Part shown: in pieces, positions 2,982 through 15,829 of the stretch
Numbering within the stretch: the first letter of the stretch is position 1
Layout of the letters: each line of letters opens with the position of its first letter
The notes under the pieces: generated by a model
The model's database searches: none
What the model saw: the letters and a program-made list of their open reading frames with translations, nothing else
What the model was told of the DNA's origin: nothing
Translations under genes and position numbers: made by a program
Assembly (NCBI GenBank): GCA_964397045.1
Contig: CAYNHF010000049.1
Coordinates: 1,027 to 65,026, forward strand
Reading direction: 5' to 3'
Length of the DNA stretch: 64,000 nucleotides
DNA from: an uncultured Acidimicrobiaceae bacterium
GTDB taxonomy: Bacteria; Actinomycetota; Acidimicrobiia; Spongiisociales; UBA5794

Positions 2982-4802
2982 ATGTCCAATGTGAGCACCA
3001 CCGAGCTCAGGCCTCCGGAAGCGGCACCACTCACGCCGTATCCGCTCGACGTCCTTCTCGGCCGCATCGTCGAAGAATGGGAGACCAGGCAGCGCATCTT
3101 CGATCTCCTGAAGGCGCGCATCTACAAGGCAGGCACCGGGCCCGATCTGTCCATCGACTTCATGGGTCGCAAGGCGGCCACCCCGCTCGGCCCCGCCGCC
3201 GGGCCCCACAGCCAGTTGGCGGAGAACATCGTGCTCGGGTGGCTCGCCGGAGCACGTCTGTTCGAGTTGAAGACGGTCCAGATTCTCGACGAGCTCGAGA
3301 TCGCACGGCCCTGCATCGACATGCAGACCATCGGCTACAACATCGAGTGGAGCCAGGAACTGAAGATCCCGCAGTCTCTCGAGGAATACGTGAAGGCCTG
3401 GATGATCATCGACATCATCAAGGACTGGGAGCCGGTGAAGCAGCTCGTGGGCGATACGCCGGGGCCGCACATCTTCGACATTTCCGTGGGGTACGACCTT
3501 GCAGGAATCTCCACCCCAGAGGTGGGGGGGTTCATCGACCGCATGATGGACGCCACTGCCGAGATCGATCGACTCCGGCCGTCGATCCCTGAGCCGTTCA
3601 CCGCGTACCGCGACTACGCGTTTGACCCGAGAGTTGCGAGCACGGCCACGCTGTCAACGTTCCACGGATGTCCACCAGACGAGATCGAGGCCATCACCAA
3701 ACACCTGATGACGCGCCACGGCCTAGACGTGATCGTGAAGCTGAACCCGACGCTGCTGGGTTACGAGAAGGTGGACGAAATCATTCACGACCGCCTCGGC
3801 TACGACTACGTGCGGCTGGTGCGCGACGCCTTCGACGAAGACCTGCAGTTCCCCAGGGCACTGGAGTTGATCGGCGAATTGGGCGACTTCGCAGCCGCGC
3901 AGGGGCGCCGCTTCGGTATCAAGCTGACCAACACGCTGGTGGTGGAGAACCACAAGGGTTTCATGCCTGAGGAACGTATGTATCTATCCGGTGCCCCACT
4001 CCACACGCTGGCGATCAGCATCCTCAACGAGCTGGTCACGGCGCTTCCCGGCACATTCGCCGTCGGGAGTGCGACGTCTGGTGCACAGGTGAGTTTTTCG
4101 GCAGGGGTGAGCAAGGACAACGTCACGGACGCGGTGGGACTCGGGCTGGCGCCGGTGACGGTGTGCTCCGACCTGCTCAAGCCCGGCGGCTACGGCCGAA
4201 TCGCTCCGATGCTCAAGGAGCTGGAGAAGACACTCAGCGCAGCCGACTGCAGCTCGGTCGCTGAGTGGAGGGCAAGCCGCCACGATGCCGCGGTCGCAGC
4301 CGGCTATCGCGATGCGATCGAGGCGCACACGGTGGCGATCACAGCTGCCGCCGCGGGCAATCCGTATGCCGCGATCGCCAATGCCAAGCTGCCGCGAGAG
4401 GTGGATCACACGCTCGAGATGTGGGGCTGCGTGGCCTGCAACTTCTGTGTGACGGTGTGCCCCAACAACGCGGTCCTCAAGCTGAAGACTCCGGAGGACA
4501 TGGAGCAACTGGAAGACCGCTGGCAGTACTTCATTCTGGCCGAGTTGTGCAACGAGTGCGGCAACTGCATGGTGTTCTGTCCCGAGGTCGGCGACCCGGC
4601 GAAGATCAAGCCCCGTCTGTTCATCGACGACGATCGGTTCGCGCTCGAATCGGCGCAAGCACAGGCGTTTCTCATAACAGAAGGCGGCGCCGGTGCCTTC
4701 ACAGTGACCCCGACGGAAGCAACGGATAGCGAGGCAGAGACGCTCGCAACGATCCTCAATTCTGCGGAAGGTCTGCCGCTGGCGAAGGCGTCGCCGGGGT
4801 GA
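2982..4802 (+). CDS. DHOD/PreA-like TIM-barrel flavoprotein with C-terminal 2x[4Fe-4S] ferredoxin domain (YgfK N-terminal-like), plus a ~100-aa C-terminal extension
   Basis: The N-terminal region resembles the class-1 dihydroorotate / dihydropyrimidine dehydrogenase fold (TPLGPAAGPHSQLAENIVLGWLAGARLFELKTVQ). It carries two CxxCxxCxxxCP clusters (CVACNFCVTVCP, CNECGNCMVFCP). A strong RBS GAGGAGGG precedes the ATG at 2982. Confidence 0.5.
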   Translation: MSNVSTTELRPPEAAPLTPYPLDVLLGRIVEEWETRQRIFDLLKARIYKAGTGPDLSIDFMGRKAATPLGPAAGPHSQLAENIVLGWLAGARLFELKTVQILDELEIARPCIDMQTIGYNIEWSQELKIPQSLEEYVKAWMIIDIIKDWEPVKQLVGDTPGPHIFDISVGYDLAGISTPEVGGFIDRMMDATAEIDRLRPSIPEPFTAYRDYAFDPRVASTATLSTFHGCPPDEIEAITKHLMTRHGLDVIVKLNPTLLGYEKVDEIIHDRLGYDYVRLVRDAFDEDLQFPRALELIGELGDFAAAQGRRFGIKLTNTLVVENHKGFMPEERMYLSGAPLHTLAISILNELVTALPGTFAVGSATSGAQVSFSAGVSKDNVTDAVGLGLAPVTVCSDLLKPGGYGRIAPMLKELEKTLSAADCSSVAEWRASRHDAAVAAGYRDAIEAHTVAITAAAAGNPYAAIANAKLPREVDHTLEMWGCVACNFCVTVCPNNAVLKLKTPEDMEQLEDRWQYFILAELCNECGNCMVFCPEVGDPAKIKPRLFIDDDRFALESAQAQAFLITEGGAGAFTVTPTEATDSEAETLATILNSAEGLPLAKASPG

Positions 4803-5398
4803 GCGGGAGACGTCTTCCGCTGCGCACCGAACTCGTCCTGCCGGACTGGTTCGCCGACGTGGAGGTACCGGAGTCCAGCGACGGGGACGAGGCTCGAATG
4901 GCGTTTGTGGTCGACCTGGCGCGGCGCAACGTTGAGCACGGCACCGGCGGCCCTTTCAGCTCTGCAGTGTTCTCTCTCGAAGAGGGAGCACTGGTGTCGG
5001 TTGGAGTCAACCTCGTCGAGCCGAGCCTGGCTGCGATCGCGCACGCCGAGATCGTCGCGATCGCACTCGCGGGCCGAGCGCTCGGATCTTTCGACTGCGG
5101 AGCGCGCGGGCCAACCGAACTCGTCGCGTCGACCGAGCCGTGTGCGATGTGCCTCGGCGCTGTCCCGTGGTCCGGGGTGGAGCGACTGGTGTGCGGGGCC
5201 AGCGATGCGGATGCGCGGGCGGTTGGGTTCGACGAGGGCAACAAGCCGGCAGGCTGGGAGCGGCTGCTGGAGAAGCAAGGAATCGAGGTCGTGACCGGGG
5301 TGCTGCGAGACTTGTCGGTGTCGGTGCTCACCGACTACGCCGCGGGCGGAGGCACGATCTACAACAGCGGTACGGCGGAAGGGGTGCGCGGTGCATGA
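4799..5398 (+). CDS. CDA-fold zinc deaminase, guanine deaminase (GuaD)-like
   Basis: HAE...PCxxC zinc-binding signature (AHAEIVAIALAG ... TEPCAMCLGAVPWSG) with a colinear match to B. subtilis GuaD. The GTG start overlaps the upstream stop (GTGA); an alternative ATG at 4895 is possible. Confidence 0.7.
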   Translation: MSGRRLPLRTELVLPDWFADVEVPESSDGDEARMAFVVDLARRNVEHGTGGPFSSAVFSLEEGALVSVGVNLVEPSLAAIAHAEIVAIALAGRALGSFDCGARGPTELVASTEPCAMCLGAVPWSGVERLVCGASDADARAVGFDEGNKPAGWERLLEKQGIEVVTGVLRDLSVSVLTDYAAGGGTIYNSGTAEGVRGA

Positions 5399-6866
5399 GG
5401 TTCAGGTAGCGGGAGTCGGGGTGGCGGAGCACGCCACCGTCGCCTCTGTGGATGAGGCGCTGCAACTTCTCGCCGAATCCGGGGAAGCGGCGCGCCTGGT
5501 TGCCGGCGGCACCGATCTCCTGCTCGAACTTGCCCGCAACGTTCGCCCCGGTATCACCAGACTCATCGATATCAGCCGGGTTCCCGGGCTCGCCAGTATC
5601 GGAGTCGACGCAGACAGAACCGTGCACGTCGGCCCCCTGGTGACGCACAACGACGCGGTCGCCTCGCCCCTGCTGCGAGAAAGCGCGCTGCCGCTGGCGC
5701 AGGCGTGCTGGGAGGTGGGGTCGCCGCAGTTGCGCAACCGGGCCACCATCGCCGGAAACCTCGTGACCGCCAGTCCTGCCAACGACACCATCTCGGCTTT
5801 GCGAGCCCTCGGTGCCGACGTCACACTGCAGTCGGTGCGGGGGGAGCGCACGGTGGCACTGCGAGATTTCTACACCGGGGTGCGCCGGACAGTGATGCAG
5901 CAGGACGAGATGCTGGTAGACATCTCGTTTCCTGCGATGACGCCTGCGCAGCGGGGCATTTTCGTCAAGCTTGGGCTGCGGCGGGCCCAGGCGATCTCGG
6001 TGGTTCACCTCGCGATCGTCGGCGAGTTCGAAGGGGCCAAGGTGACGAAAGCTACGATCGCGCTCGGCAGCGTGGCTCCGACCATCGTCACCGCAGACGC
6101 CGCAGCCGACATGCTGGTCGGCTCCGAACTCGATGAGACGACGATCGAACGAGCCGCAGCCGCGGCCGGTGCGCTACCTACTCCAATCGACGATCTGCGG
6201 GCAACCGCCGAGTATCGGGCTGAGTTGATACCCACCATGGTCACCCGGGGGCTGCGAGCACTACGAGACGGGACCGAGGCAGCCCACCTGCCTGCGACTC
6301 CGGCGCGATTGGCGCCGCACCCGGTAGCCGCCACGGCGACGTCCGCACGGCATGGTCAGACAGAGCCGGTGGTGGCCACGGTGAACGGACTCACCATCGA
6401 GGCACCGGGAGCCGCCGGGGTGACGCTCCTCGACTGGCTCCGAGACGTGGCGGCACCTGAGGCGGCGGCTTCGCTGTATGGCACCAAGGAAGGTTGTGCC
6501 GAGGGTGAATGCGGTGCTTGCACCGTGGTGCTCGACGGCGCCGCGGTGATGGCGTGCCTGGTGCCTGCCGCCCGCGCCCATCGCGCCGAAGTCATCACCA
6601 TCGAGGGGCTGCGAGACCCATCCGATCCGGACCGGTTGCACCCACTTCAGCAGGCGTTCGTAGATCAGGGTGCTGTGCAATGTGGCTTCTGCATTCCCGG
6701 CTTCCTGATGTCGGGTGCGATGCTGCTCGACGAGTTTCCGGAGCCCACTGCGGACCAGGTGCGTCAGGGTTTTGCGGGCAACCTGTGTCGCTGCACCGGC
6801 TACTACAAGATGTTCACCGCGGTCGACCAGGCAGCCCGTGACCTCGCGGCGGGGGGGCGGTCATGA
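5391..6866 (+). CDS. Fused molybdenum-hydroxylase FAD-binding subunit (CoxM/XdhB-like) and [2Fe-2S] subunit (CoxS/XdhC-like)
   Basis: The N-terminal ~290 aa is a CO-dehydrogenase flavoprotein-type domain (LVAGGTDLLLEL, AGNLVTASPANDT). The C-terminal part has plant-type and second 2Fe-2S motifs (CAEGECGACTVVLDG, CGFCIPGF, CRCTGY). The GTG start overlaps the upstream stop, and its own stop overlaps the next ATG (ATGA). Confidence 0.85.
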   Translation: MHEVQVAGVGVAEHATVASVDEALQLLAESGEAARLVAGGTDLLLELARNVRPGITRLIDISRVPGLASIGVDADRTVHVGPLVTHNDAVASPLLRESALPLAQACWEVGSPQLRNRATIAGNLVTASPANDTISALRALGADVTLQSVRGERTVALRDFYTGVRRTVMQQDEMLVDISFPAMTPAQRGIFVKLGLRRAQAISVVHLAIVGEFEGAKVTKATIALGSVAPTIVTADAAADMLVGSELDETTIERAAAAAGALPTPIDDLRATAEYRAELIPTMVTRGLRALRDGTEAAHLPATPARLAPHPVAATATSARHGQTEPVVATVNGLTIEAPGAAGVTLLDWLRDVAAPEAAASLYGTKEGCAEGECGACTVVLDGAAVMACLVPAARAHRAEVITIEGLRDPSDPDRLHPLQQAFVDQGAVQCGFCIPGFLMSGAMLLDEFPEPTADQVRQGFAGNLCRCTGYYKMFTAVDQAARDLAAGGRS

Positions 6867-9100
6867 CGGTTGGTGCTTCCTCGACCCGCATCGACGCCCC
6901 GGGAAAGGTCACCGGAGCCACGCGGTATCCCGCCGACCTGGCTCACGACGGCCTGCATGCTCAGGTCGTCTTCACCGACCAGCCGCATGCCCGGATGCTG
7001 AGTATGGATCTCACCGCGGCACGGGCGGTGCCCGGGGTTGTTGAAATCTTCACCGCGGCCGACGTGCCGGTGAACGAGTACGGGCTGACCATGTTCGATC
7101 AGCCCGTCTTCGTAGGGGTCGGCGCAACCGGCCGCAGCGAGGTTCCCTCCGACGTGAGCAGGTGGGAGGCGGATCACGTCGCCCTCGTCGTTGCGGAGAC
7201 ACCTGCCGCTGCCAACAAGGCAGCCGGTGCGATTGCGATCGAATGGGAGCCGTTGCGCCTTGTTGCCGACCTGGATGCGGCACTGAATGGCTCGACCCTG
7301 GTGCACCCTGAAAACGGCATTGGATCCAACATCTATGTGCACCAGAGGATCCGGAAGGGTGACGTCGCCGCGGCCTGGGAGCGAGCCGAGGTGATCATCG
7401 AAGGCACCTACGAGCTGCCCCATCAAGAGCATGCCTACCTGCAACCGGAAGCCGCCGTCAGCTACGTCGATGAACAGGGGCGGGTGACGGTCGAGATTGC
7501 CGGTCAATGGACCCACGAGGACCAGGAACAGATCGCCCACGCCCTCGATCTACCCGCGGAACAGGTCCGAGTGATCTACCCGGCGATCGGCGGCGCGTTC
7601 GGTGGTCGCGAGGACATGACGCTGCAGATCGTGATGGCACTGGCCTCATGGCGGCTCGCGGAGCGTGGCGAGCTGCGCCCGATCCGCACCACTTGGTCGC
7701 GCGAGGAGAGCATCGTCGGACATCACAAGCGACACCGTGGTCGGATCCACACCCGGTGGGGAGCGACCCGGGAGGGTGAACTGATCGTCGTCGAGGCGGA
7801 CGCGTATCTCGACGCCGGTGCCTACAACTACACCACGAACAAGGTGCTCGGCAATCTCCACCTCAGCGTTGCGGGCCCCTACCGGGTGCCGAATGCGCGT
7901 ATTGACAGCATGGGGGTCTACACCACCTCCGTCCCCGGTGGCGCGTTCCGGGGGTTCGGTGCGCCGCAGGGGGCGTTTGCTGCCGAGAGCCAGATGAACA
8001 AGCTGGCCGCTGAGCTCCAAATGGACCCGGTCGAGCTCCGCCTGAAGAACGCGCTGCGCGAGGGGAGCATCGGGATCACGATGGTGGAGATGCCCGCGGG
8101 CGTGAGTCTTCCTACGGTCATCGAGGAGTGCGCCGTAGCGTCGAGCTGGTCGACGCCACGGGAGCCGGTTCCAACGTTTCGCCCCTTTCAATCGCTTCCC
8201 GCGGAGCCCGGTGCGATTCGGATCGGCAGGGGGTTTGCGTGCTCCTACAAGAATGTCGGCTTCTCGTTCGGTTTCCCGGAGAACTCCACGGCACGGATCG
8301 AACTCGAGGGGGACACGGCCATCGAACTGGTGCGCCTCTTCTATGCCGGGGCAGACGTCGGTCAGGGTGGCCACACTGCATGGATCCAGATGGCCGCGGA
8401 AGCGACCGGAGTCGACCCGGAGCTGGTCCAGGCAGAGTTCTCCGACACTGCGTCAGCGGACAACTCGGGCTCGGCTTCGGCATCCCGGCTCACCTGGATG
8501 ACAGGCAACGCGATCCTCGGGGCCGCCGAAGAAGCAGGCAAAGCGTGGGTCGATGGTGACCGCCCCGCGATCGGCGACTTCAAGTTCGTCCCGCCTCCAA
8601 CCCAGGCACTCGACCCAGACACCGGGTTCGGCCAGCCGAACTTCGCGTACGGATACGTGGCAGAGGCAGTCGAGGTCGCGGTCGACATCGAAACCGGGCA
8701 CGTCGAGGTCCGCGATGTCACCTGCGCGGTCGACGTCGGGAAGGCGATCAACCCGAACCTGGTCGAGGGCCAGATCGAGGGAGCCGTGGTCCAGGCCCAC
8801 GGGTACGCCGTCACCGAGAACCTCCAGGTTGCCGAGGGACGAGTCCTGAATCCGCGACTGTCGACGTATCTCATCCCGGGAATCATGGACATTCCGGTCC
8901 GGGTGCACAGTGTGATCGTGGAGGAGCCAGACCCGCGGGGTCCGTGGGGAGCCAGGGGCATGGCCGAGATGCCGTTCATACCGTTCGCACCCGCCGTGGT
9001 CGCCGCGCTCTACGACGCGACCGGTGTCTGGTTCCACGGGTTCCCGCTAACGCCCCCACGAGTCAGGGCTGCCTTGGTCGCGGCAGGCGTCACCGGCTGA
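6863..9100 (+). CDS. Xanthine dehydrogenase family molybdopterin-binding subunit (complete, 745 aa)
   Basis: Full-length Mo-hydroxylase large-subunit architecture (N-terminal a/b hammerhead, GGAFGGRED-type MoCo motifs, C-terminal dimerisation domain). It is translationally coupled to the FAD/Fe-S gene. Confidence 0.9.
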   Translation: MTVGASSTRIDAPGKVTGATRYPADLAHDGLHAQVVFTDQPHARMLSMDLTAARAVPGVVEIFTAADVPVNEYGLTMFDQPVFVGVGATGRSEVPSDVSRWEADHVALVVAETPAAANKAAGAIAIEWEPLRLVADLDAALNGSTLVHPENGIGSNIYVHQRIRKGDVAAAWERAEVIIEGTYELPHQEHAYLQPEAAVSYVDEQGRVTVEIAGQWTHEDQEQIAHALDLPAEQVRVIYPAIGGAFGGREDMTLQIVMALASWRLAERGELRPIRTTWSREESIVGHHKRHRGRIHTRWGATREGELIVVEADAYLDAGAYNYTTNKVLGNLHLSVAGPYRVPNARIDSMGVYTTSVPGGAFRGFGAPQGAFAAESQMNKLAAELQMDPVELRLKNALREGSIGITMVEMPAGVSLPTVIEECAVASSWSTPREPVPTFRPFQSLPAEPGAIRIGRGFACSYKNVGFSFGFPENSTARIELEGDTAIELVRLFYAGADVGQGGHTAWIQMAAEATGVDPELVQAEFSDTASADNSGSASASRLTWMTGNAILGAAEEAGKAWVDGDRPAIGDFKFVPPPTQALDPDTGFGQPNFAYGYVAEAVEVAVDIETGHVEVRDVTCAVDVGKAINPNLVEGQIEGAVVQAHGYAVTENLQVAEGRVLNPRLSTYLIPGIMDIPVRVHSVIVEEPDPRGPWGARGMAEMPFIPFAPAVVAALYDATGVWFHGFPLTPPRVRAALVAAGVTG

Positions 9101-9147
9101 CGGTTGGCCCCTATCTGCCGTGGTCGCCGGCATGCCAGGATGGACCC

Positions 9148-9951
9148 ATGGGCAACCCGGAACAGAGTCGAGCCCGGACGAATCGAGCTCGCGGCATCTC
9201 GGTACGGCCGTTTCCCGCCCGCCGCAAGGCGGTGCTTCAGGCGATGCGGGTGGGCAGGCGCATGGCGCCGATGCATGGACTACTCGACGTTGATGTGACG
9301 CGTGCCGTGCGGCGGGTGTCCGATGCAGAAGAACCTGCCAGCTTCACGGCGTTCATCGTGGCGGCGGTGGCTCGCGCTGCGGCAGAGCACCCCGAGGTCC
9401 ACGCCTACCGGGACTACCGCGGCCGGCTGGTGACACACGGCCATGTCGATGTGACGACGATGATCGAAGTGCCTACGGTCGACGGCGCGTTTCCGCTCGG
9501 CCACGTCATCCGTGACGCGGATGTGAGGTCGGTTGCCGACATCACACGCGAGCTGCGAGGTGTCCAGGCAGATCCGGCTTCGAGTCCGAGCGGGTACCTG
9601 CTTCAGCGCGTCGGCGGCGTGGCATCGCGGGTCCCCTTCTTCTTCGGCGCCTTCTATCGCGTCGCGGCTCGGTCGCGTCGTATCCGCGCCTCGATCGGTA
9701 CCGTTGCAGTGACTTCGGTGGGCATGTTCGGGGGTGGTAGTGGCTTTGGGATCGGTGTCCCTACGGTGATGACACTCACTGTTCTGGTTGGGGGGCGCAG
9801 CCGGAGGCCCAGGGCCGTCGGGGACGTAGTGGAATTGCGCGACGTCTTGGATCTCACCATCACCATCGATCACAACGTCGTAGACGGCGCTCCGGCGGCC
9901 CGGTTTGGCGCCGAGTTGCGGCGAAGACTCGAGACGGCAGACCTTCCCTAG
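9148..9951 (+). CDS. Stand-alone 2-oxoacid dehydrogenase E2-type acyltransferase catalytic domain protein (no lipoyl or E3-binding domains)
   Basis: Carries the catalytic-domain signature DHNVVDGAPAARF (DHRxxDG(A)xAARF) plus upstream conserved blocks (MHGLLDVDVT, VPTVMTLTVL). I chose the ATG at 9148 inside the longer 8944 ORF because the sequence upstream of it overlaps the Mo-subunit gene. Confidence 0.65.
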   Translation: MGNPEQSRARTNRARGISVRPFPARRKAVLQAMRVGRRMAPMHGLLDVDVTRAVRRVSDAEEPASFTAFIVAAVARAAAEHPEVHAYRDYRGRLVTHGHVDVTTMIEVPTVDGAFPLGHVIRDADVRSVADITRELRGVQADPASSPSGYLLQRVGGVASRVPFFFGAFYRVAARSRRIRASIGTVAVTSVGMFGGGSGFGIGVPTVMTLTVLVGGRSRRPRAVGDVVELRDVLDLTITIDHNVVDGAPAARFGAELRRRLETADLP

Positions 9952-10118
9952 TGAATCGTTGCCCGAGGGGGGTGGCCCAGCGCGATCGGCCCTTCGGATT
10001 TCCTGCCAGAATGGGATCTCCCGGCGTTCACGGCCTCTCTGCGGTCGCGCCGGATCTTGTCACGGGCGCCCGGGCCCCTCCCGGGATCGGACTGTTGGAA
10101 TGTTCGGAGGAACACACA

Positions 10119-11068
10119 TGAGGAGCTTCGCAGGCAGAGACATCTTGTCACTGAAGGATATGGAACGAGCCGAGTTCTTCCACATCTTCGATGTCGCTGC
10201 CGAACTCGAACCAATCGCACGAGAGCGACGCAACGTCGATCTCCTTGCAGACAAGACGCTGGTCACCGCCTTCTATCAGCCATCGACCCGAACCCGGTTG
10301 GCTCATGAGGCCGCCATGCATCGCCTCGGCGGCGCCGTCCTCGGGTTCTCAGACGCCAAGATGACCAGGGCAGGCGACTTCTACCAGGAGTCGATCAAAG
10401 ACACCGTCCACATGCTCGAGTATTACGGCGACGTCATGGTCATGCGCCACTTCCAGCAGGGGGCGCCCCAGGAAGCCGCCCGCTGGGCGAGCATCCCGGT
10501 GATCAATGCCGGCGACGGCTGGGGTGAGCACCCGACCCAGGTGTTGACCGACCTGTACACCATCTTGCAGGAGAAGGGCACCATCGACGGCTTGAAGATC
10601 GTGTGCATCGGGGACATGCGGATGCGCACCATGCATTCCATCGGCTACGCCCTGAGCCAGTTCGACGCCGAGGCGATCTTCATCGCCCCGCCTGAGATGA
10701 ACCTCACCGATGAATTCAAAGAGGAACTCGTTGCCAAGGACACCAACTTCCGCGAGGCGGAGCACATCATGGACGTGATCGGCGAGGCGGACGTCGTCTA
10801 CATGGAGCCCGTGGTGCAGCCCGACTACACGAAGCCGCGCGATGAGAGAACCGGCGATATCGGACTCACCCCGGACAACTACAAGGTGACCCGCGAAGTC
10901 ATGAAGAGCGCCAAGAGCGACGCCATCGTGCTCCATTCCTTGCCCCGCATGGATGAGCTGCTCATGGACGTAGACGAGACCCGCCACGCCCGCTATTGGG
11001 AAGAGGCGTTCTACGGCGTCGTCATGCGCATGGCGCTGCTGTCGCTGGTGCTCGGCGCCGCCGAGTGA
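10119..11068 (+). CDS. Aspartate carbamoyltransferase (PyrB)-like transcarbamylase, ~316 aa
   Basis: STRTR, HPTQ and HSLPR motifs, and colinear similarity to E. coli PyrB along the whole length (PSTRTRLAHEAAMHRLGGAVLGFSD; INAGDGWGEHPTQVLTDLYTI; VLHSLPRMDEL). GGAGGA RBS 6 nt upstream of the ATG at 10119. It is not in a pyr-operon context. Confidence 0.75.
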
Positions 11069-11132
11069 GCCGAGTGAGCCGGGCGGCGAGCTGCCGCACC
11101 CCGACCATCTGGTATTGAGAGAGGAAATAGAC

Positions 11133-12107
11133 GTGCAAACAGGCTTGCGTGGTCGTGACATGATCACGACCCAGGAATGGACCAAGAACGAACTCGATAC
11201 CGTGCTGGACGTGGCGCTCGATCTCAAGCGCCGCAGGGCGCTCGGCGAGCTCCATCCGCTGCTGCGGGACAAGGTGCTTGCCATGTTGTTCTTCTTCTCC
11301 TCGACCCGCACCCGTGCCAGCTTCGAGGCCGGGGTGGCTCAGCTCGGGGGGCACGCCCAGTTCATCGAGTCGAAGAGCACCCAGATCTCCCACGGCGACA
11401 CCGCGAAGGAGATCGGCGACATCCTCGGCCGGTACAACGACGGCATTGCCATCCGGCAGGTCGACTGGGGAGTGGGCAACGGCTACATCCGCGACGTGGC
11501 TGCGGCCTCCCGCACCCCGGTGTTGAACATGCAGTGTGACTGGTACCACCCGTTCCAGGCGTTGGCTGATCTGCTCACGATCATCGAGTACAAGGGCGAC
11601 CCGCGGGGCCTCACGATCGACGTCAGCTGGGCCTACGCCGACAGCTATCAGAAGCCGTTGAGTGTTCCCCAGAGCCTCATCACGCTGATGACCCGCTACG
11701 GGATGAACGTGCGGCTGACCCGGCCGCCCGAGTTCAAGCTCATGCCGGAGGTGATGGCCCAAGCGGAGGCCAATGCCGCAGCTGCAGGCGGCTCCTTCGA
11801 GGTCGTCGAAGACTTCGATGCCGGGTTCCGGGATGCAGACGTGGTGTACGCCAAGAGCTGGGGCGCCATGCTCACGACGACAGATGACGAGGATTCGGCG
11901 CAGATCGGGGCGCAGTACACCGACTGGATCACAGACGAGCGGCGCATGGCGCTGGCTAAGCCGGACTCGATGTATATGCACCCGCTGCCTGCCGATCGCA
12001 ACATCGAGGTGACGGACGCGGTGATCGACGGACCCAATAGCGCCGTCTTCGATGAGGCGGAGAATCGGCTCCATGTACAGAAGGCGGTAATGGCGCTCAC
12101 CATGTGA
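11133..12107 (+). CDS. ygeW: YgeW-like transcarbamylase (knotted ATC/OTC-superfamily carbamoyltransferase of purine-ureide catabolic clusters)
   Basis: SSTRTRASFE, NMQCDWYHPFQ, WAYADSYQKPLSVPQSLITLMTRYGMNV and MHPLPADRN blocks match my memory of E. coli YgeW. The start is uncertain: TTG at 11115, GTG at 11133 (preceded by a GAGAGGAAA RBS) or ATG at 11160. Confidence 0.65.
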   Translation: MQTGLRGRDMITTQEWTKNELDTVLDVALDLKRRRALGELHPLLRDKVLAMLFFFSSTRTRASFEAGVAQLGGHAQFIESKSTQISHGDTAKEIGDILGRYNDGIAIRQVDWGVGNGYIRDVAAASRTPVLNMQCDWYHPFQALADLLTIIEYKGDPRGLTIDVSWAYADSYQKPLSVPQSLITLMTRYGMNVRLTRPPEFKLMPEVMAQAEANAAAAGGSFEVVEDFDAGFRDADVVYAKSWGAMLTTTDDEDSAQIGAQYTDWITDERRMALAKPDSMYMHPLPADRNIEVTDAVIDGPNSAVFDEAENRLHVQKAVMALTM

Positions 12108-12185
12108 GCGCTCCGCAGGCAACGGGACGGGGCAGTACAGCTCCGGCGGCGTGCGTACAACCGAGCAGCAAGTCTGGAGGACAGC

Positions 12186-13127
12186 GTGGCACGAAGAGCA
12201 GTAGTTGCGATCGGGGGAAACTCCCTGATCAGAGATGCAAGTCGGCAGAGTGTCGAGGATCAGTACCTCGCGGCTGCGGAGACCGATCACCACATCGCGG
12301 CGCTTATCCGCGAGGGGTGGGAGATCTGTATTACCCACGGGAACGGGCCTCAGGTTGGTTTCATCATGCGCCGCTCCGAGCTAGCGGCCCATGAGCTCCA
12401 CGAGGTGCCGCTCGAGGTATGCGTCGCAGACACCCAGGGAGCCATCGGCTACGCCCTGCAGCAGACGCTGGGGCATGACTTGAGCCGGCTCGGTATCGAA
12501 AAGGGGGTCGTGACCGTCGTCACGCAGGTCGAGGTCGACGAAAACGATCCTGCGTTCGCCAAACCGGGCAAGCCGATTGGGTCATTTCTCGACGAGGACA
12601 CTGCTGCACAACGGACCCTGGAGAACGGCTGGACCTGCATCGAAGACGCAGGGCGAGGCTGGCGTCGTGTCGTCGCCTCGCCGGCCCCGGTACGCGTGGT
12701 AGAGGCAGGCGCCATCAAGTTCCTGATGGACTCCGGATTCGTGGTGATTGCGGCAGGTGGCGGGGGGATTCCCGTGGCTGAGCGAGACGGTGATCTCGTG
12801 GGAGTGGCCGCGGTGATCGACAAGGACCTGGCGTCTGCTCTGCTCGCAGGCGATATCGGGGCGGACACGTTCCTCATTACGACGGCGGTCGAGCAGGTGG
12901 CGCTGAACTGGGGAACTCCAGAGCAGGAGTGGGTGAGCCACATGACACTCGACGAGGTCAAGGGATATCTCGCGGAGGGCGGCCACTTCGCAGAAGGGTC
13001 GATGGCGCCGAAGATGCGTGCGGTCGTACAGTTCCTCGAACAGGGCGGCCGCGAGGCCATCATCACCGATCCCGACAACATGCAACGCGCCATGGCAGGC
13101 GAGACCGGTACCCGGATCACTGCGTAG
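12186..13127 (+). CDS. arcC: Carbamate kinase
   Basis: Starts VVAIGGNSL and carries the HGNGPQVG motif of the amino-acid kinase fold of carbamate kinases. GTG start with GGAGGA RBS. Confidence 0.85.
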   Translation: MARRAVVAIGGNSLIRDASRQSVEDQYLAAAETDHHIAALIREGWEICITHGNGPQVGFIMRRSELAAHELHEVPLEVCVADTQGAIGYALQQTLGHDLSRLGIEKGVVTVVTQVEVDENDPAFAKPGKPIGSFLDEDTAAQRTLENGWTCIEDAGRGWRRVVASPAPVRVVEAGAIKFLMDSGFVVIAAGGGGIPVAERDGDLVGVAAVIDKDLASALLAGDIGADTFLITTAVEQVALNWGTPEQEWVSHMTLDEVKGYLAEGGHFAEGSMAPKMRAVVQFLEQGGREAIITDPDNMQRAMAGETGTRITA

Positions 13128-13306
13128 CTGCGCGGTCTGGCGACCGCACTTGCCCACATCTGCGCCGGCCGATGCAGGTGCCCGGAAAGGCGAAACCGCC
13201 TGATACCACTGCCGTTCGCCATGACCGCCTCCTCAAGCCTCCAGACACGAACGTCGATAGAGAGGTGACGGGTACCGAATCTGGTAGGCGAAGCGAGGTT
13301 GCTTGG

Positions 13307-15829
13307 ATGGGCTGGAGTCCCGACCCTGAACTCCGTCAGATGTTCATGGACGAGCTGAACGAAAGGTCGTCTCGGCTGGTTGAGGGTGCGCGCGCCATGC
13401 GCAATGGGCCGGTGGACTCGGAGTACGCAGGCGGCATGATGCGCGAGGGCCACACGATCAAGGGCACTGCACGTGTCCTCGGGTTTGAGGCGGTTTCGGT
13501 CGGCGGTCTGCTGGTCGAAGAGATCTGGAAGCGGATCCAGCACGGTGACCTCGAGCCGACTGAAGAGCTCGCGTTGGCGCTCGAGGCACTGGCAGAAACG
13601 GTGGTTGGCGCCGGTGAGGCCGATCCGGACACCGGTACCGTCGAGCACTACCAAGCAATGACCCGACTTTCCGCCCTGGTCCCAGATGTCGCACTTCCCG
13701 CGGTCACGCCACCAGACCCGACGGCAGTCGCCGCGACCACGCCACTGGAGCCCTTGGTCTCGGTGGACCTGATCACGGACCCGACCGTCGTGGAACCGAC
13801 CACCATGGCCCCGGCCGTTGCAGAGCCGATTGTCGCCGCCCCAATCGTCGAGGAAGAGCCGGTCGCCACCAGCGCGTCACCCCAGGAGATCGCGGCTGCT
13901 CCCGAGGAGCCTGCAGTTGAGTCCGCGCCACCACCACAGCCTGAGGCCGCGTCTCCCCCTGGAGGGGGCGTCGATCCGCGCCCGCCTTTGGGCCGAAGTC
14001 CGAGTGGAGAGTATCCGGTGGGAGCCATGTCCGCGGTGCGGAGGCTACGGGGCCAGGAGGACCACGGGGCGGAGGCTCCGGTCCCGGTACCCGTCGAACC
14101 TGCGGCCCCGATACCCGTCGCCGCGGTTGCGGTCGCCACGTCACACGAAGCACCTGCTGCGAGCGAGCCGGTGGCCATGCCGGACCCGACTCCCCCGCTC
14201 GTCGCCGCGGCATCTGAGCCGGGGAGGCCCGCTTCTCGCTCCAGTGATGTCGACTATCTGATCGAGTCGATTGGGCGCTGGGTGGTCGAACCCTCGATGG
14301 TCAACGCCGGGTCGCTGAATCGTCTCGTCAACGGTTTGTCCGAAACGCGTTCGCAGGCAGACATCCTCGTCAACCTCGTCGGCCAGCTCGGTGACTCGGT
14401 GCCGGCAGACATCGCCGATCATCTCAACCGCGTATCGACTTGGCTCCAGCAGTCGGCGGCAGGCATGCTCGACGAGTCGCTCGGCCTGGCGGCCGTGCCG
14501 GTCACCAACATCACCAACACGCTGCCGCAGCTGGTTCGACTGCTGTCGGGCAAGCTCGGCAAGGACGTTGCCTTCGAGATCACGGGCGATGAGAGCATCT
14601 CAGTAGACCGCCAGATCCTTGAACAGCTGAGCGAGCCGGTTCGCCACGTCATTGTCAACGCCCTCATCCATGGGATCGAGTCGCCGCAGGCCCGGGCCGC
14701 AGCCCGCAAGCCTGAGGAGGCCAGTCTCGAGATGCGCGTTGGGCTTCGCGACGGCACGTTCGAAATCGAGATCGCAGACGACGGCGCCGGGGTCGACCTG
14801 GCGGCAGTACGCCGCGTAGCCGTGGAGCGGGGCCTCATCGACGAGGCGGCAGTCTCCGACGAATCCCTTGAACGGTTGGTATTCCTTGATGGACTCAGCA
14901 CAGGAAGTGAGGCGGAGTCCACCGGTTCCGGACATGGCCTCTCGGTTGTGGCGCAAACCGTCGAAGGGCTATTCGGACGCGTCCGGATGGTGTCGGAACC
15001 AGCCGTCGGTACGACGGTCACGCTTGCCGTACCTTCGGCTAGGGCACTCGAGAAGCTGCTGCTGGTCGAGGCCGGGGGAGGACTATGGGCTGTGCCCTCG
15101 GCTGCGGTCGAGGCGGTGCATCCCATCAAGGATGTCACCGTATTCGAAGACGGGGACGCACGCGAGATTGAGTGGAACGCTTCCCGGATCCCGCTGCGCT
15201 CACTGGCGGTGACCGCCGGCGTTGCGCCCGGACGACGGGATCAGACGCTGCTCGTGATGTCGCACCGGACGGGTCGAGCCGCATTCACTTGCGGCGGTGC
15301 GCGTGGTACGTACGAACTCTGGGTGAGGCACCTGGGGGCATCGCACGCCGCGCCTCGCCATGTTTTCGGGATGTCGTTTCTCGCCAACCGCGAGGCGGTG
15401 CTCGTACTCGACGCTGGCCGGATGGTCGAACGCGCCAGCAGTCTCCCCGACGACGACCGACACCGTGAGGTTCGGGTGCTCGTAGTCGACGACTCGCGGG
15501 GTGCGCGGGCGGTGGTTTCGAGTGCCTTGGCCTCGGCAGGGCTCACTCCAAGCGTGGCAGGATCGGTGTCCGAAGCACTCGAGGTGCTCGACGAGCACGA
15601 AGTCGATGCACTGGTCGTCGATTTCTCGATGCCAAACGCCGATGGAGTTGCGCTCGTCAAGGAGGTCAGGGCTCGCAAAGACCCGATGCCGATCGTGATG
15701 CTTTCGGCAGTTGCCAACGAGGAAGACCAGACCCGCGCGAAACGGGCCGGGGTCGACGCCTTCTTTGCCAAGGGATCCTTTCAGGAGGGAGTGCTCGCCG
15801 ACGCGCTCTGGGAGATGCTCGACGCCTGA
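13307..15829 (+). CDS. CheA-like hybrid histidine kinase (HPt, Pro/Ala/Glu-rich linker, HATPase, CheW-like domain, C-terminal receiver)
   Basis: HPt motif EGHTIKGTARVLG, kinase G-boxes (DDGAGVDL, GSGHGLSVV), a CheW-like domain, and a REC domain (VLVVDDSRGARAV...DALVVDFSMPNADG...PIVMLSA). The long 12929 ORF overlaps carbamate kinase, so I chose the ATG at 13307. Confidence 0.75.
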   Translation: MGWSPDPELRQMFMDELNERSSRLVEGARAMRNGPVDSEYAGGMMREGHTIKGTARVLGFEAVSVGGLLVEEIWKRIQHGDLEPTEELALALEALAETVVGAGEADPDTGTVEHYQAMTRLSALVPDVALPAVTPPDPTAVAATTPLEPLVSVDLITDPTVVEPTTMAPAVAEPIVAAPIVEEEPVATSASPQEIAAAPEEPAVESAPPPQPEAASPPGGGVDPRPPLGRSPSGEYPVGAMSAVRRLRGQEDHGAEAPVPVPVEPAAPIPVAAVAVATSHEAPAASEPVAMPDPTPPLVAAASEPGRPASRSSDVDYLIESIGRWVVEPSMVNAGSLNRLVNGLSETRSQADILVNLVGQLGDSVPADIADHLNRVSTWLQQSAAGMLDESLGLAAVPVTNITNTLPQLVRLLSGKLGKDVAFEITGDESISVDRQILEQLSEPVRHVIVNALIHGIESPQARAAARKPEEASLEMRVGLRDGTFEIEIADDGAGVDLAAVRRVAVERGLIDEAAVSDESLERLVFLDGLSTGSEAESTGSGHGLSVVAQTVEGLFGRVRMVSEPAVGTTVTLAVPSARALEKLLLVEAGGGLWAVPSAAVEAVHPIKDVTVFEDGDAREIEWNASRIPLRSLAVTAGVAPGRRDQTLLVMSHRTGRAAFTCGGARGTYELWVRHLGASHAAPRHVFGMSFLANREAVLVLDAGRMVERASSLPDDDRHREVRVLVVDDSRGARAVVSSALASAGLTPSVAGSVSEALEVLDEHEVDALVVDFSMPNADGVALVKEVRARKDPMPIVMLSAVANEEDQTRAKRAGVDAFFAKGSFQEGVLADALWEMLDA

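Follow-up and report, generated by a model that had tools for sequence, protein, structure and literature searches.

The name “pseudo-ATCases,” formed on aspartate carbamoyltransferase (ATCase), was introduced by Barba et al. (2013, BMC Syst Biol; PMC4016543). The pseudo-ATCase of Rubrobacter xylanophilus is a ureidoglycine carbamoyltransferase (UGTCase), and the single pseudo-ATCase of Nocardioides sp. JS614 (A1SH59) adjoins a ygeW homolog (A1SH60), xdhABC, and hyuA (PMC4016543). In the reductive (2,8-dioxopurine) urate pathway, 2,3-diureidopropionate is split phosphorolytically by YgeW, and YgeY hydrolyzes the second ureido group, which in Escherichia coli and Firmicutes is removed in this way without energy gain (PMC12507026; bioRxiv 10.1101/2025.04.24.650524). 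E. coli YgeW and YqeA together make ATP (bioRxiv 10.1101/2025.04.24.650524). By term search, neither of these two sources mentions aspartate carbamoyltransferase, PyrB, or a second carbamoyltransferase. The present analysis concerns a 64,000-nucleotide stretch of contig CAYNHF010000049.1 (assembly GCA_964397045.1), from an uncultured Acidimicrobiaceae bacterium, which is referred to as a whole as the window. In it, three co-oriented open reading frames (ORFs) on the + strand encode a predicted transcarbamylase of the pseudo-ATCase type (TC1), a predicted transcarbamylase of the YgeW type (TC2), and a carbamate kinase:

10118–11068, + strand: TC1, 316 aa; ATG start, GGAGG upstream
11133–12107, + strand: TC2, 324 aa; GTG start, GAGAGGAA upstream
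12186–13127, + strand: carbamate kinase, 313 aa; GTG start, GGAGG upstream

There is high confidence that this trio constitutes a substrate-level phosphorylation module that ends a reductive purine pathway. A preliminary description of the locus had proposed that two different catabolic transcarbamylases feed the kinase for substrate-level phosphorylation, and this proposal is borne out by the loss of the aspartate-binding residues from TC1, by the occurrence of the trio in purine-catabolic clusters, and by the ATP formation of E. coli YgeW and YqeA. The same description began the first gene at 10119, which is one base out of frame. The genes are separated by 64 nt (TC1–TC2) and 78 nt (TC2–carbamate kinase), and each has a strong ribosome-binding site. 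The TC2 start at 11133 is also called on an identical metagenome contig (L001); a longer ORF from 11115 was rejected because neither the homologs nor the L001 gene call support it. A promoter and terminator scan of 9000–13600 gave nothing above shuffled expectation, and Rfam gave no match in the window.

The arrangement was followed by mapping reference proteins onto 85 related loci, 67 of which have enough downstream sequence and 48 of which have at least 9 kb on both sides. TC2 adjoins TC1 in 65 of the 67 loci (97%), mostly across gaps of 6–170 bp, and the carbamate kinase is present in 61 (91%); thus, the arrangement is far beyond chance. Relatives of TC1 with 75–80% identity occur in at least 590 stretches in a collection of one genome per species, mostly from Anaerolineae and other Chloroflexota, Acidimicrobiia, and Nitriliruptoria. 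The TC1 protein search scored about 8000 candidates, nearly all of them strong matches, as did the TC2-type search (likewise about 8000). Median identities to the window are 77% for TC1, 69% for TC2, and 62% for the carbamate kinase, so that TC1 is the most conserved of the trio; between Chloroflexota and Actinomycetota, TC1 identity is 75–80%. This high conservation could come from a very strong constraint, from horizontal spread in recent times, or from the two together.

The first transcarbamylase and its ATCase-like fold

TC1 contains the Pfam domains OTCace_N (1e-45) and OTCace (1e-26) and is only 28% identical to TC2. It scores above the cut-off of TIGR00670 (265.2 bits; cut-off 236.95) and below that of NF002032 (239.3 bits; cut-off 263). 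Its alignment with ATCase models, that of TIGR00670 included, runs from end to end, so that the colinearity with ATCase given in the preliminary description holds, as does the location outside a pyr operon, there being no pyr gene in the window. The best solved relative, both by sequence and by fold, is the ATCase of Pyrococcus abyssi (1ML4; TM 0.83, model pLDDT 74); the low-confidence stretches of the model are mostly the 80s loop, the 240s loop, and the HSLP region. TC1 shares 67% identity with A1SH59, 37–43% with ATCases overall (43% with that of P. furiosus), and 36% with the UGTCase Q1AS69.

When 86 family members (the window and the 85 related loci) were aligned with the ATCases of E. 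coli, P. furiosus, and Sphaerobacter, the carbamoyl-phosphate site, comprising S52-T53-R54-T55 (STRTR motif), R105, and H134 and Q137 (HPTQ motif), was invariant in all 86 sequences, and so was R167. The binding residues of ATCase include K84, which comes from the neighboring chain, and R229 and Q231 of the RxQ motif (PMC4581275). In the TC1 family, K84Y and R229P are invariant and Q231V is present in 85 of 86 sequences. Other invariant changes are S80R, K83D, K164R, Y165M, T228E, R234D, and P266S, of which D83, E228, and D234 are new acidic residues, and one residue is deleted at G166. The HP[LG]P motif of ATCases (H265–P268; motif table in PMC4016543) reads HSLP in 86/86 sequences, and the 80s loop of TC1 reads TRAGDFYQE.

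An identity of TC1 with PyrB is very unlikely, given the exchange of the aspartate-binding residues K84, R229, and Q231, and a carbamoyl-aspartate-like substrate, as suggested in the preliminary description, is unlikely for the same reason. It could still be supposed that TC1 is the biosynthetic PyrB of this organism and only happens to adjoin catabolic genes: the protein is above the TIGR00670 cut-off, its fold is closest to ATCase, and all public sources name it aspartate carbamoyltransferase. No pyr gene and no second PyrB, PyrI, or ArgI homolog was found in the window or the 85 related loci, and this search did not reach the rest of the source genomes. On the other hand, besides the exchange of K84, R229, and Q231 for Y, P, and V and the score below the NF002032 cut-off, pyrI, pyrC, and carAB are all missing near TC1, across loci the gene keeps its place next to genes for a YgeW-type protein and a carbamate kinase, and its identity between Chloroflexota and Actinomycetota is above that of TC2 or the kinase. 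In addition, organisms with pseudo-ATCases are stated to have authentic ATCases as well (PMC4016543). A housekeeping PyrB at this place is thus given almost no credence.

In a neighbor-joining tree (100 bootstraps), TC1 and A1SH59 form a clade with 100% bootstrap outside the authentic ATCases, which form a clade of their own (85%). AOTCase, SOTCase, and PTCase were left out of the tree and were compared by profile scores and by the tree labels of Barba et al. (2013). The A1SH59 subgroup is defined by HSLP, the loss of RxQ, and a position near archaeal-type ATCases but outside the authentic ones (Barba et al., 2013). As judged from its sequence, TC1 is a pseudo-ATCase of the Nocardioides A1SH59 type and a predicted carbamoyltransferase. 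The motif rows given for pseudo-ATCase subgroups 1–3 in Table 1 of PMC4016543 do not match the labels in the tree files of the same paper, in which HPLA belongs to a marine group, HTLP/HSLP to Rubrobacter/Clostridium, and HSLP to Nocardioides; direct sequence comparison was therefore used in place of the subgroup numbering of that table.

Another reading would place TC1 with UGTCase (allantoate + Pi → ureidoglycine + carbamoyl phosphate) or with an enzyme acting on some other ureide of oxidative urate/allantoin catabolism. TC1 and UGTCase both count among the pseudo-ATCases, a loosely defined set, and have an H[ST]LP motif, and TC1 has a carbamate kinase neighbor in a purine cluster, as does Rxyl_2847 (PMC4016543). 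However, the identity between TC1 and Q1AS69 is only 36% and their grouping in the tree is unsupported (29% bootstrap), and TRAGDFYQE in the 80s loop of TC1 contrasts with an ATCase-like S/K pattern (S...K.E) in UGTCase. The residues proposed for UGTCase are S102*/K106*, S258, and K261 (PMC4581275); with regard to both these residues and closeness to Q1AS69, TC1 falls outside the UGTCase group. No uricase, HIU hydrolase, OHCU decarboxylase, or allantoinase was found among the annotated genes of the window or of L048, which alone among the related loci was fully annotated, the other loci not being searched for them, and the SsnA/YgfK/XdhD context is that of the reductive route. A UGTCase-like activity of TC1 is consequently regarded as improbable.

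Among 1.84 billion cluster representatives, the TC1 family is represented by two full-length clusters with identities of 77% and 75%. Full-length relatives then follow at 43–50% identity; they have the ATCase fold, and the first clearly authentic ATCase appears at 42%. Most of the relatives at 43–50% (P0247, P0248, P0251, P0252, P0254, P0257, P0258, P0261, P0262, P0264, P0268, P0271, and P0274) have the 80s-loop motif [ST]R[AS]GD.Y.E and all are without RxQ, and the 230 region and HxLP vary among them. These proteins apparently make up a broad, uncharacterized radiation.

The second transcarbamylase and the carbamate kinase

TC2 contains the Pfam domains OTCace_N (1e-37) and OTCace (1e-39) and lies under every NCBIfam transcarbamylase cut-off, including those for ornithine carbamoyltransferase (OTC; 255 against 306 and 239.5 against 281), N-acetylornithine carbamoyltransferase (AOTC; 254 against 288), and YgeW (NF005538, 197.5 bits against 453; TIGR03316, 184 bits against 500). 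Its motifs STRT, HPFQ, and HPLP (HCLP in nine family members) follow the SxRT/HPxQ/HxLP pattern of YTCase. The sequence signature of the knotted class consists of a proline-rich loop and an extended 120s loop (PMC4581275). The former is kept almost verbatim, being WAYADSYQKPLSVPQ in TC2 and WAYSPSYGKPLSVPQ in YgeW, and the latter is IRQVDWGVGNGY in TC2. The residues proposed to bind the second substrate of YgeW (Q98, Q160, S200, K203, and K270), plus D334 and E344, are found in every aligned TC2 sequence (66–68 of 68, the remainder being truncated sequences), and D124 varies (H/Q/N). TC2 is 35% identical to E. coli YgeW and has 324 aa against 396 aa; the alignment shows it to be without the extra N- and C-terminal helices of YgeW and two extra helices of the 240s loop. 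An AlphaFold model built for TC2 with 24 close homologs is too poor for judging the trefoil knot (mean pLDDT 51).

TC2 is 70% identical to A1SH60 of Nocardioides and 66% identical to E8MZ16 of Anaerolinea, both of which are labeled YTC in the tree of Barba et al. (2013). These three proteins group at 100% bootstrap and then join E. coli YgeW at 100%, against the ornithine carbamoyltransferases (OTCases), so that the phylogenetic placement advised in the preliminary description sets TC1 outside the authentic ATCases and TC2 with YgeW. An assignment to OTC or AOTC was rejected because of the scores under the cut-offs, the replacement of DxxxSMG by AKSWGAM, and a short 80s loop with Gln in place of the extended one with Trp of AOTC; no arg genes were found near TC2. 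The earlier assignment to the YgeW family is right as to the knotted-class signature and the clade, but the protein is compact, only 35% identical to YgeW, and under the NCBIfam YgeW cut-offs. TC2 is thus predicted to be a compact knotted-class enzyme of the YgeW type (YTCase) and a 2,3-diureidopropionate carbamoyltransferase, not a strict YgeW equivalog. The substrate of YgeW, which had been taken as unresolved in the preliminary description, is now 2,3-diureidopropionate (PMC12507026; bioRxiv 10.1101/2025.04.24.650524).

A search seeded with a short YTCase of Halanaerobium led to a large Firmicute family of 327-aa TC2-type proteins, and three isolates of this family were viewed: Tepidibacter aestuarii, Zhaonella formicivorans, and Halarsenatibacter silvermanii (L093–L095). 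In all three, the TC2-type protein (48% identical to TC2) is encoded within a canonical uricolytic cluster with SsnA, an XdhD-like protein, and a kinase, and variously HyuA, YgfK, or a DHO_dh-type reductase. In 3/3 clusters, the TC2-type gene has a YgeY ortholog as its direct neighbor (identities to E. coli YgeY of 73%, 73%, and 52%), and no TC1 homolog was found within 10 kb. TC1 occupies the position that YgeY holds in these Firmicute clusters. By analogy, TC2-type enzymes appear to fill the YgeW role in otherwise standard clusters; TC2 itself is assigned this predicted role because the substrate-site residues of YgeW are kept and because TC2-type genes hold the YgeW position in the canonical clusters.

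The third protein of the trio is, by profile and sequence comparison, a carbamate kinase of the ArcC/YqeA type. It scores 370.3 bits with TIGR00746 (arcC; cut-off 358.25) over residues 4–312 and 391 bits with NF009007 (cut-off 266), and it is 49% identical to E. coli YqeA.

Gene neighborhood of the trio

The genes upstream of TC1 in the window share its orientation:

1–1935, + strand: selenium-dependent xanthine dehydrogenase (XDH)/XdhD-like molybdenum subunit, cut at the window start
1943–2965, + strand: short SsnA-like amidohydrolase, 340 aa; best NCBIfam match SsnA
2982–4802, + strand: YgfK-like reductase, 606 aa; N-terminal half and 4Fe-4S dicluster only
4799–5398, + strand: deaminase of the cytidine deaminase (CDA) fold, possibly a purine base deaminase (PF00383, E-value 4e-12)
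5391–9100, + strand: second XDH-family enzyme; fused FAD and 2Fe-2S subunit at 5391–6866, molybdopterin subunit at 6863–9100
9148–9951, + strand: E2-type acyltransferase domain protein, 267 aa (PF00198, E-value 2e-20)

The XdhD-like protein is shortened by the window edge and scores 597 bits with TIGR03311 (Se_dep_XDH), below the cut-off of 830; the corresponding gene on L090 encodes at least 824 aa. The SsnA-like protein scores 250 bits against the SsnA cut-off of 444, covers profile positions 57–340 of 444, and is 36% identical to E. coli SsnA. It has about 55 N-terminal and about 100 C-terminal residues fewer than the 442-aa SsnA model, and the 340-aa form also adjoins TC1/TC2 in L004, L006, L007, L009, L012, and L037. 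This putative enzyme may catalyze the same ring opening as SsnA. The YgfK-like protein scores 436 bits with TIGR03315 (Se_ygfK), below the cut-off of 835, covers profile positions 4–397 of 1012, and is 39% identical to residues 5–408 of E. coli YgfK. Its FMN/DPD-like part is kept, and it is without the GltD-like FAD/NAD(P)H domain that is found in E. coli YgfK (1032 aa) and in the YgfK-like protein of L004 (1185 aa); the short form is common to L009, L012, and L037. This half-size architecture suggests an electron donor other than that of full YgfK. Deaminases of a kind like that at 4799–5398 occur in the purine cluster of R. xylanophilus (Rxyl_2842; PMC4016543) and in L093. The second XDH-family enzyme contains the domains FAD_binding_5, CO_deh_flav_C, Fer2_2, MoCoBD_1, and MoCoBD_2, and its best family match is pucD (512 bits, under the pucD cut-off).

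The E2-type protein at 9148–9951 lies 166 nt upstream of TC1 and consists of the 2-oxoacid-dehydrogenase E2 catalytic domain alone, with no lipoyl or subunit-binding domain. It is probably outside the conserved module, since a counterpart is missing from all of the 85 related loci. Downstream of the trio, unrelated housekeeping genes follow (CheA-like kinase, pcrA, sucCD, purN, purH, folD, icd, mdh, sdh, and others). No HyuA, YgeY, YgeX, or related pyridoxal-phosphate (PLP) enzyme was found in the window.

Across the 48 fully flanked loci, the following genes are found near TC1:

GntR regulator: 38/48 loci
8-oxoguanine-deaminase-family amidohydrolase: 36/48 loci
adenine deaminase: 31/48 loci
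threonine-synthase-like PLP enzyme: 21/48 loci
XDH genes: 14/48 loci
genuine YgeY: 14/48 loci
cysteine-synthase-like PLP enzyme: 10/48 loci
short SsnA-like protein: 6/48 loci
YgfK-like protein: 6/48 loci
D-hydantoinase: 2/48 loci

In Chloroflexota, for example in L048 (6032–9229), the most constant neighbors of the trio are the amidohydrolase, adenine deaminase, and a GntR/UTRA regulator, after which comes an ABC transporter of the Bmp type. The amidohydrolase of the L048 type is above the 8-oxoguanine deaminase cut-off (671 bits against 532), and SsnA and the reductase were not found within 10 kb in such Chloroflexota loci. A threonine-synthase-like protein (about 418 aa) and a distantly cysteine-synthase-like protein (about 490 aa) follow TC1-TC2, with or without the kinase, as a pair in L004 (13032–15848), L006, L007, L009, L012, L035, L037, L068, L076, L078, and L085, and also in the Firmicute locus L095 (6626–9362). 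True YgeX (diaminopropionate ammonia-lyase) occurs in two loci only, L010 and L074, both without the pair. Because the pair is never found together with true YgeX, it suggests an alternative disposal of diaminopropionate or of a ureido-alanine.

Some loci, a minority, have extra genes between TC1 and TC2, which code for a 174-aa protein, small four-helix proteins, or large membrane proteins. In the Anaerolineae loci L003 (11014–15060), L029, L047, L052, and L066, these are one or two multi-pass membrane proteins of about 650–700 aa with no Pfam or NCBIfam match, and L029 and L066 additionally have a glycosyltransferase-like gene at this place. Since the intervening genes are sporadic, they were rejected as parts of the module and treated as insertions.

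A possible second phosphorolytic step and comparison with known systems

The best explanation of the module, to which an even chance may be given, would be phosphorolysis of the two ureido groups of 2,3-diureidopropionate, one by TC2 and the other by TC1, with a yield of up to two ATP per purine. By homology, the XDH homologs, the YgfK-like and SsnA-like proteins, and a hydantoinase that is not in the window would convert purines to 2,3-diureidopropionate. TC2, as judged from its conserved residues and cluster position, would split one ureido group with phosphate to release carbamoyl phosphate, and TC1 may phosphorolyse the remaining one, most plausibly the N-alpha-ureido group of 3-amino-2-ureidopropionate, a candidate that follows from the step order in the Liu et al. 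preprint. TC1 can be pictured as a transcarbamylase of the alpha-amino-acid type, in which R167 (alpha-carboxylate) is kept and the beta-carboxylate pocket would be remodeled with acidic residues. The carbamate kinase would then convert each carbamoyl phosphate with ADP to ATP, CO2, and NH3, giving up to two ATP per purine and not one, and the leftover diaminopropionate would be converted to pyruvate by genes outside the window. The substrate given here for TC1 is inferred; among those suggested in the preliminary description, oxamate finds no support in the context, and a diaminopropionate-derived ureide is the best candidate. It is also tempting to regard TC1 as a new transcarbamylase activity, acting on the N-alpha-ureido group of 3-amino-2-ureidopropionate or on 2,3-diureidopropionate, which would replace YgeY, double the substrate-level ATP yield, and be the first assigned member of the [ST]R[AS]GD.Y.E radiation; this view is tentative and would sooner be doubted than relied upon.

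Several observations weigh against a second phosphorolytic step by TC1. A genuine YgeY (TIGR03526, 444 bits; cut-off 321.5) is encoded just upstream of TC1 in 14 of the 48 fully flanked loci (29%) and is missing from 34, which weakens a simple replacement model; strict replacement of YgeY by TC1 was rejected as a rule because both are present in these 14 loci. In L026, YgeY and TC1 occur with neither TC2 nor a carbamate kinase nearby. HyuA, YgeX, and the PLP-enzyme pair are missing from the window, and HyuA is rare near TC1 (2/48 loci), so that the route to 2,3-diureidopropionate can only be proposed here. The search of the window and the 85 related loci, as distinct from the rest of the genomes, revealed no separate pyrB. 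ATCases act on the L-amino acid. By contrast, the published intermediates are R (D) configured (PMC12507026; bioRxiv 10.1101/2025.04.24.650524). Furthermore, the two studies of 2025 disagree on the ureido group that is removed by YgeW (PMC12507026; bioRxiv 10.1101/2025.04.24.650524), which makes it uncertain which position is to be assigned to TC1 and which to TC2.

Some of these observations would be accommodated if TC1 acted on another ureido intermediate of the reductive purine pathway and YgeY or another hydrolase were still needed. Candidates would be ureidomethyl-hydantoin or 5-ureido-dihydrouracil, cyclic compounds whose free ureido group would be attacked, or the group removed by TC2 on the other stereoisomer. 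The co-occurrence of YgeY with TC1 and TC2 in the 14 loci, the usual absence of HyuA near TC1, and the pairing of TC1 with YgeY in L026 without TC2 are all consistent with such a role, as is the formation of two cyclic ureido products by SsnA in vitro (PMC12507026). However, R167, which in ATCase binds an open-chain alpha-carboxylate, is kept in TC1, and the hydantoin and dihydrouracil have no such carboxylate; moreover, the Firmicute slot beside the TC2-type gene is that of YgeY, which acts on an open-chain mono-ureide. This alternative is a serious one but is considered rather unlikely.

Transcarbamylase equilibria favor carbamoylation, which is a further point against phosphorolysis and would suit a synthetic module, in which the kinase supplies carbamoyl phosphate and TC1 and TC2 carbamoylate diaminopropionate-like amines to albizziin-type products. 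Diaminopropionate transcarbamylases do exist in antibiotic biosynthesis (PMC4581275). Nevertheless, no neighbor of the trio is of the nonribosomal peptide synthetase type; instead, XDH, SsnA, YgfK, purine deaminases, and ABC transporters of the purine/nucleoside type are found there. In E. coli, the homologous pair works in the catabolic direction with formation of ATP, and both TC1 and TC2 are without the HDLP motif of the diaminopropionate/diaminobutyrate (DAP/DAB) transcarbamylases. Synthesis by this module therefore seems highly implausible.

The tandem was already noted in Nocardioides sp. JS614 in 2013 (PMC4016543), and the YgeW half was explained biochemically in 2025. The scale and rigidity of the TC1-TC2-kinase trio, which is conserved in hundreds of environmental species, the residue-level case against PyrB, and the positional link of TC1 to the YgeY step are new. 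In public sources TC1 is misnamed “aspartate carbamoyltransferase” and TC2 “ornithine” or “N-acetylornithine carbamoyltransferase”; therefore, reconstructions from metagenome-assembled genomes of Anaerolineae and Acidimicrobiia miscount genes for pyrimidine and arginine synthesis and miss a purine-fermentation module. If phosphorolysis by both enzymes is correct, both ureido groups would serve Chloroflexota and Actinomycetota that are widespread in the environment as sources of carbamoyl phosphate, and the second step would double the ATP obtained from the ureido groups of purines. This would be relevant to slow-growing anaerobes in sediments and sludge and to the engineering of uricolytic probiotics; the balance between flux and energy conservation is discussed in the 2025 papers (PMC12507026; bioRxiv 10.1101/2025.04.24.650524). 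TC1 would also provide a defined candidate substrate for one pseudo-ATCase subgroup, the only function assigned so far being that of the UGTCase subgroup.

Among known systems, PyrB (1ML4) resembles TC1 in full-length alignment, STRTR, HPTQ, R105, R167, fold (TM 0.83), and the 37–43% identity to ATCases. It differs in that K84, R229, and Q231 are replaced in TC1, HPLP is changed to HSLP, G166 is missing, the window has neither pyrI nor a pyr operon, and the partners are catabolic. The UGTCase Rxyl_2847 (Q1AS69), a catabolic phosphorolysis enzyme, is likewise a pseudo-ATCase with H[TS]LP, a carbamate kinase neighbor, and a purine-catabolic cluster, although the 80s loop and the 230 region are different and its context is oxidative (uricase/allantoinase), whereas that of TC1 is reductive (SsnA/YgfK). 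With the arginine deiminase pathway, the module shares the principle that a phosphorolytic transcarbamylase is pulled by carbamate kinase to yield ATP; unlike that pathway, it has two transcarbamylase subfamilies, no arginine deiminase, and a purine context, and the ornithine-binding DxxxSMG of OTCase is missing from both TC1 and TC2.

The E. coli YgeW-YqeA system is similar in the clustering of genes for XdhD-like, SsnA-like, YgfK-like, and YgeW-type proteins and a kinase, and in the phosphorolysis of a ureide coupled to ATP. Of the full reductive set (XdhD, YgfK/UacX, SsnA, HyuA, YgeW, YgeY, YgeX, and YqeA), the window contains the XdhD-like, YgfK-like, and SsnA-like proteins, TC2, and the kinase. 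It differs from E. coli in the additional ATCase-fold TC1, in the absence of YgeY, HyuA, and YgeX from the window, in a YgfK of half size and a short SsnA, and in a compact TC2 without the terminal helices and part of the 240s loop of YgeW. Finally, the Nocardioides pair A1SH59/A1SH60 shares with TC1 and TC2 the HSLP motif, the loss of RxQ, the tandem order, xdh neighbors, and clades with 100% bootstrap. The Nocardioides cluster has hyuA nearby and the window does not. Unlike that pair as it was described, in one genome and with no assigned substrate, TC1 and TC2 belong to a large conserved family of at least 590 stretches, in which the kinase is nearly always present.

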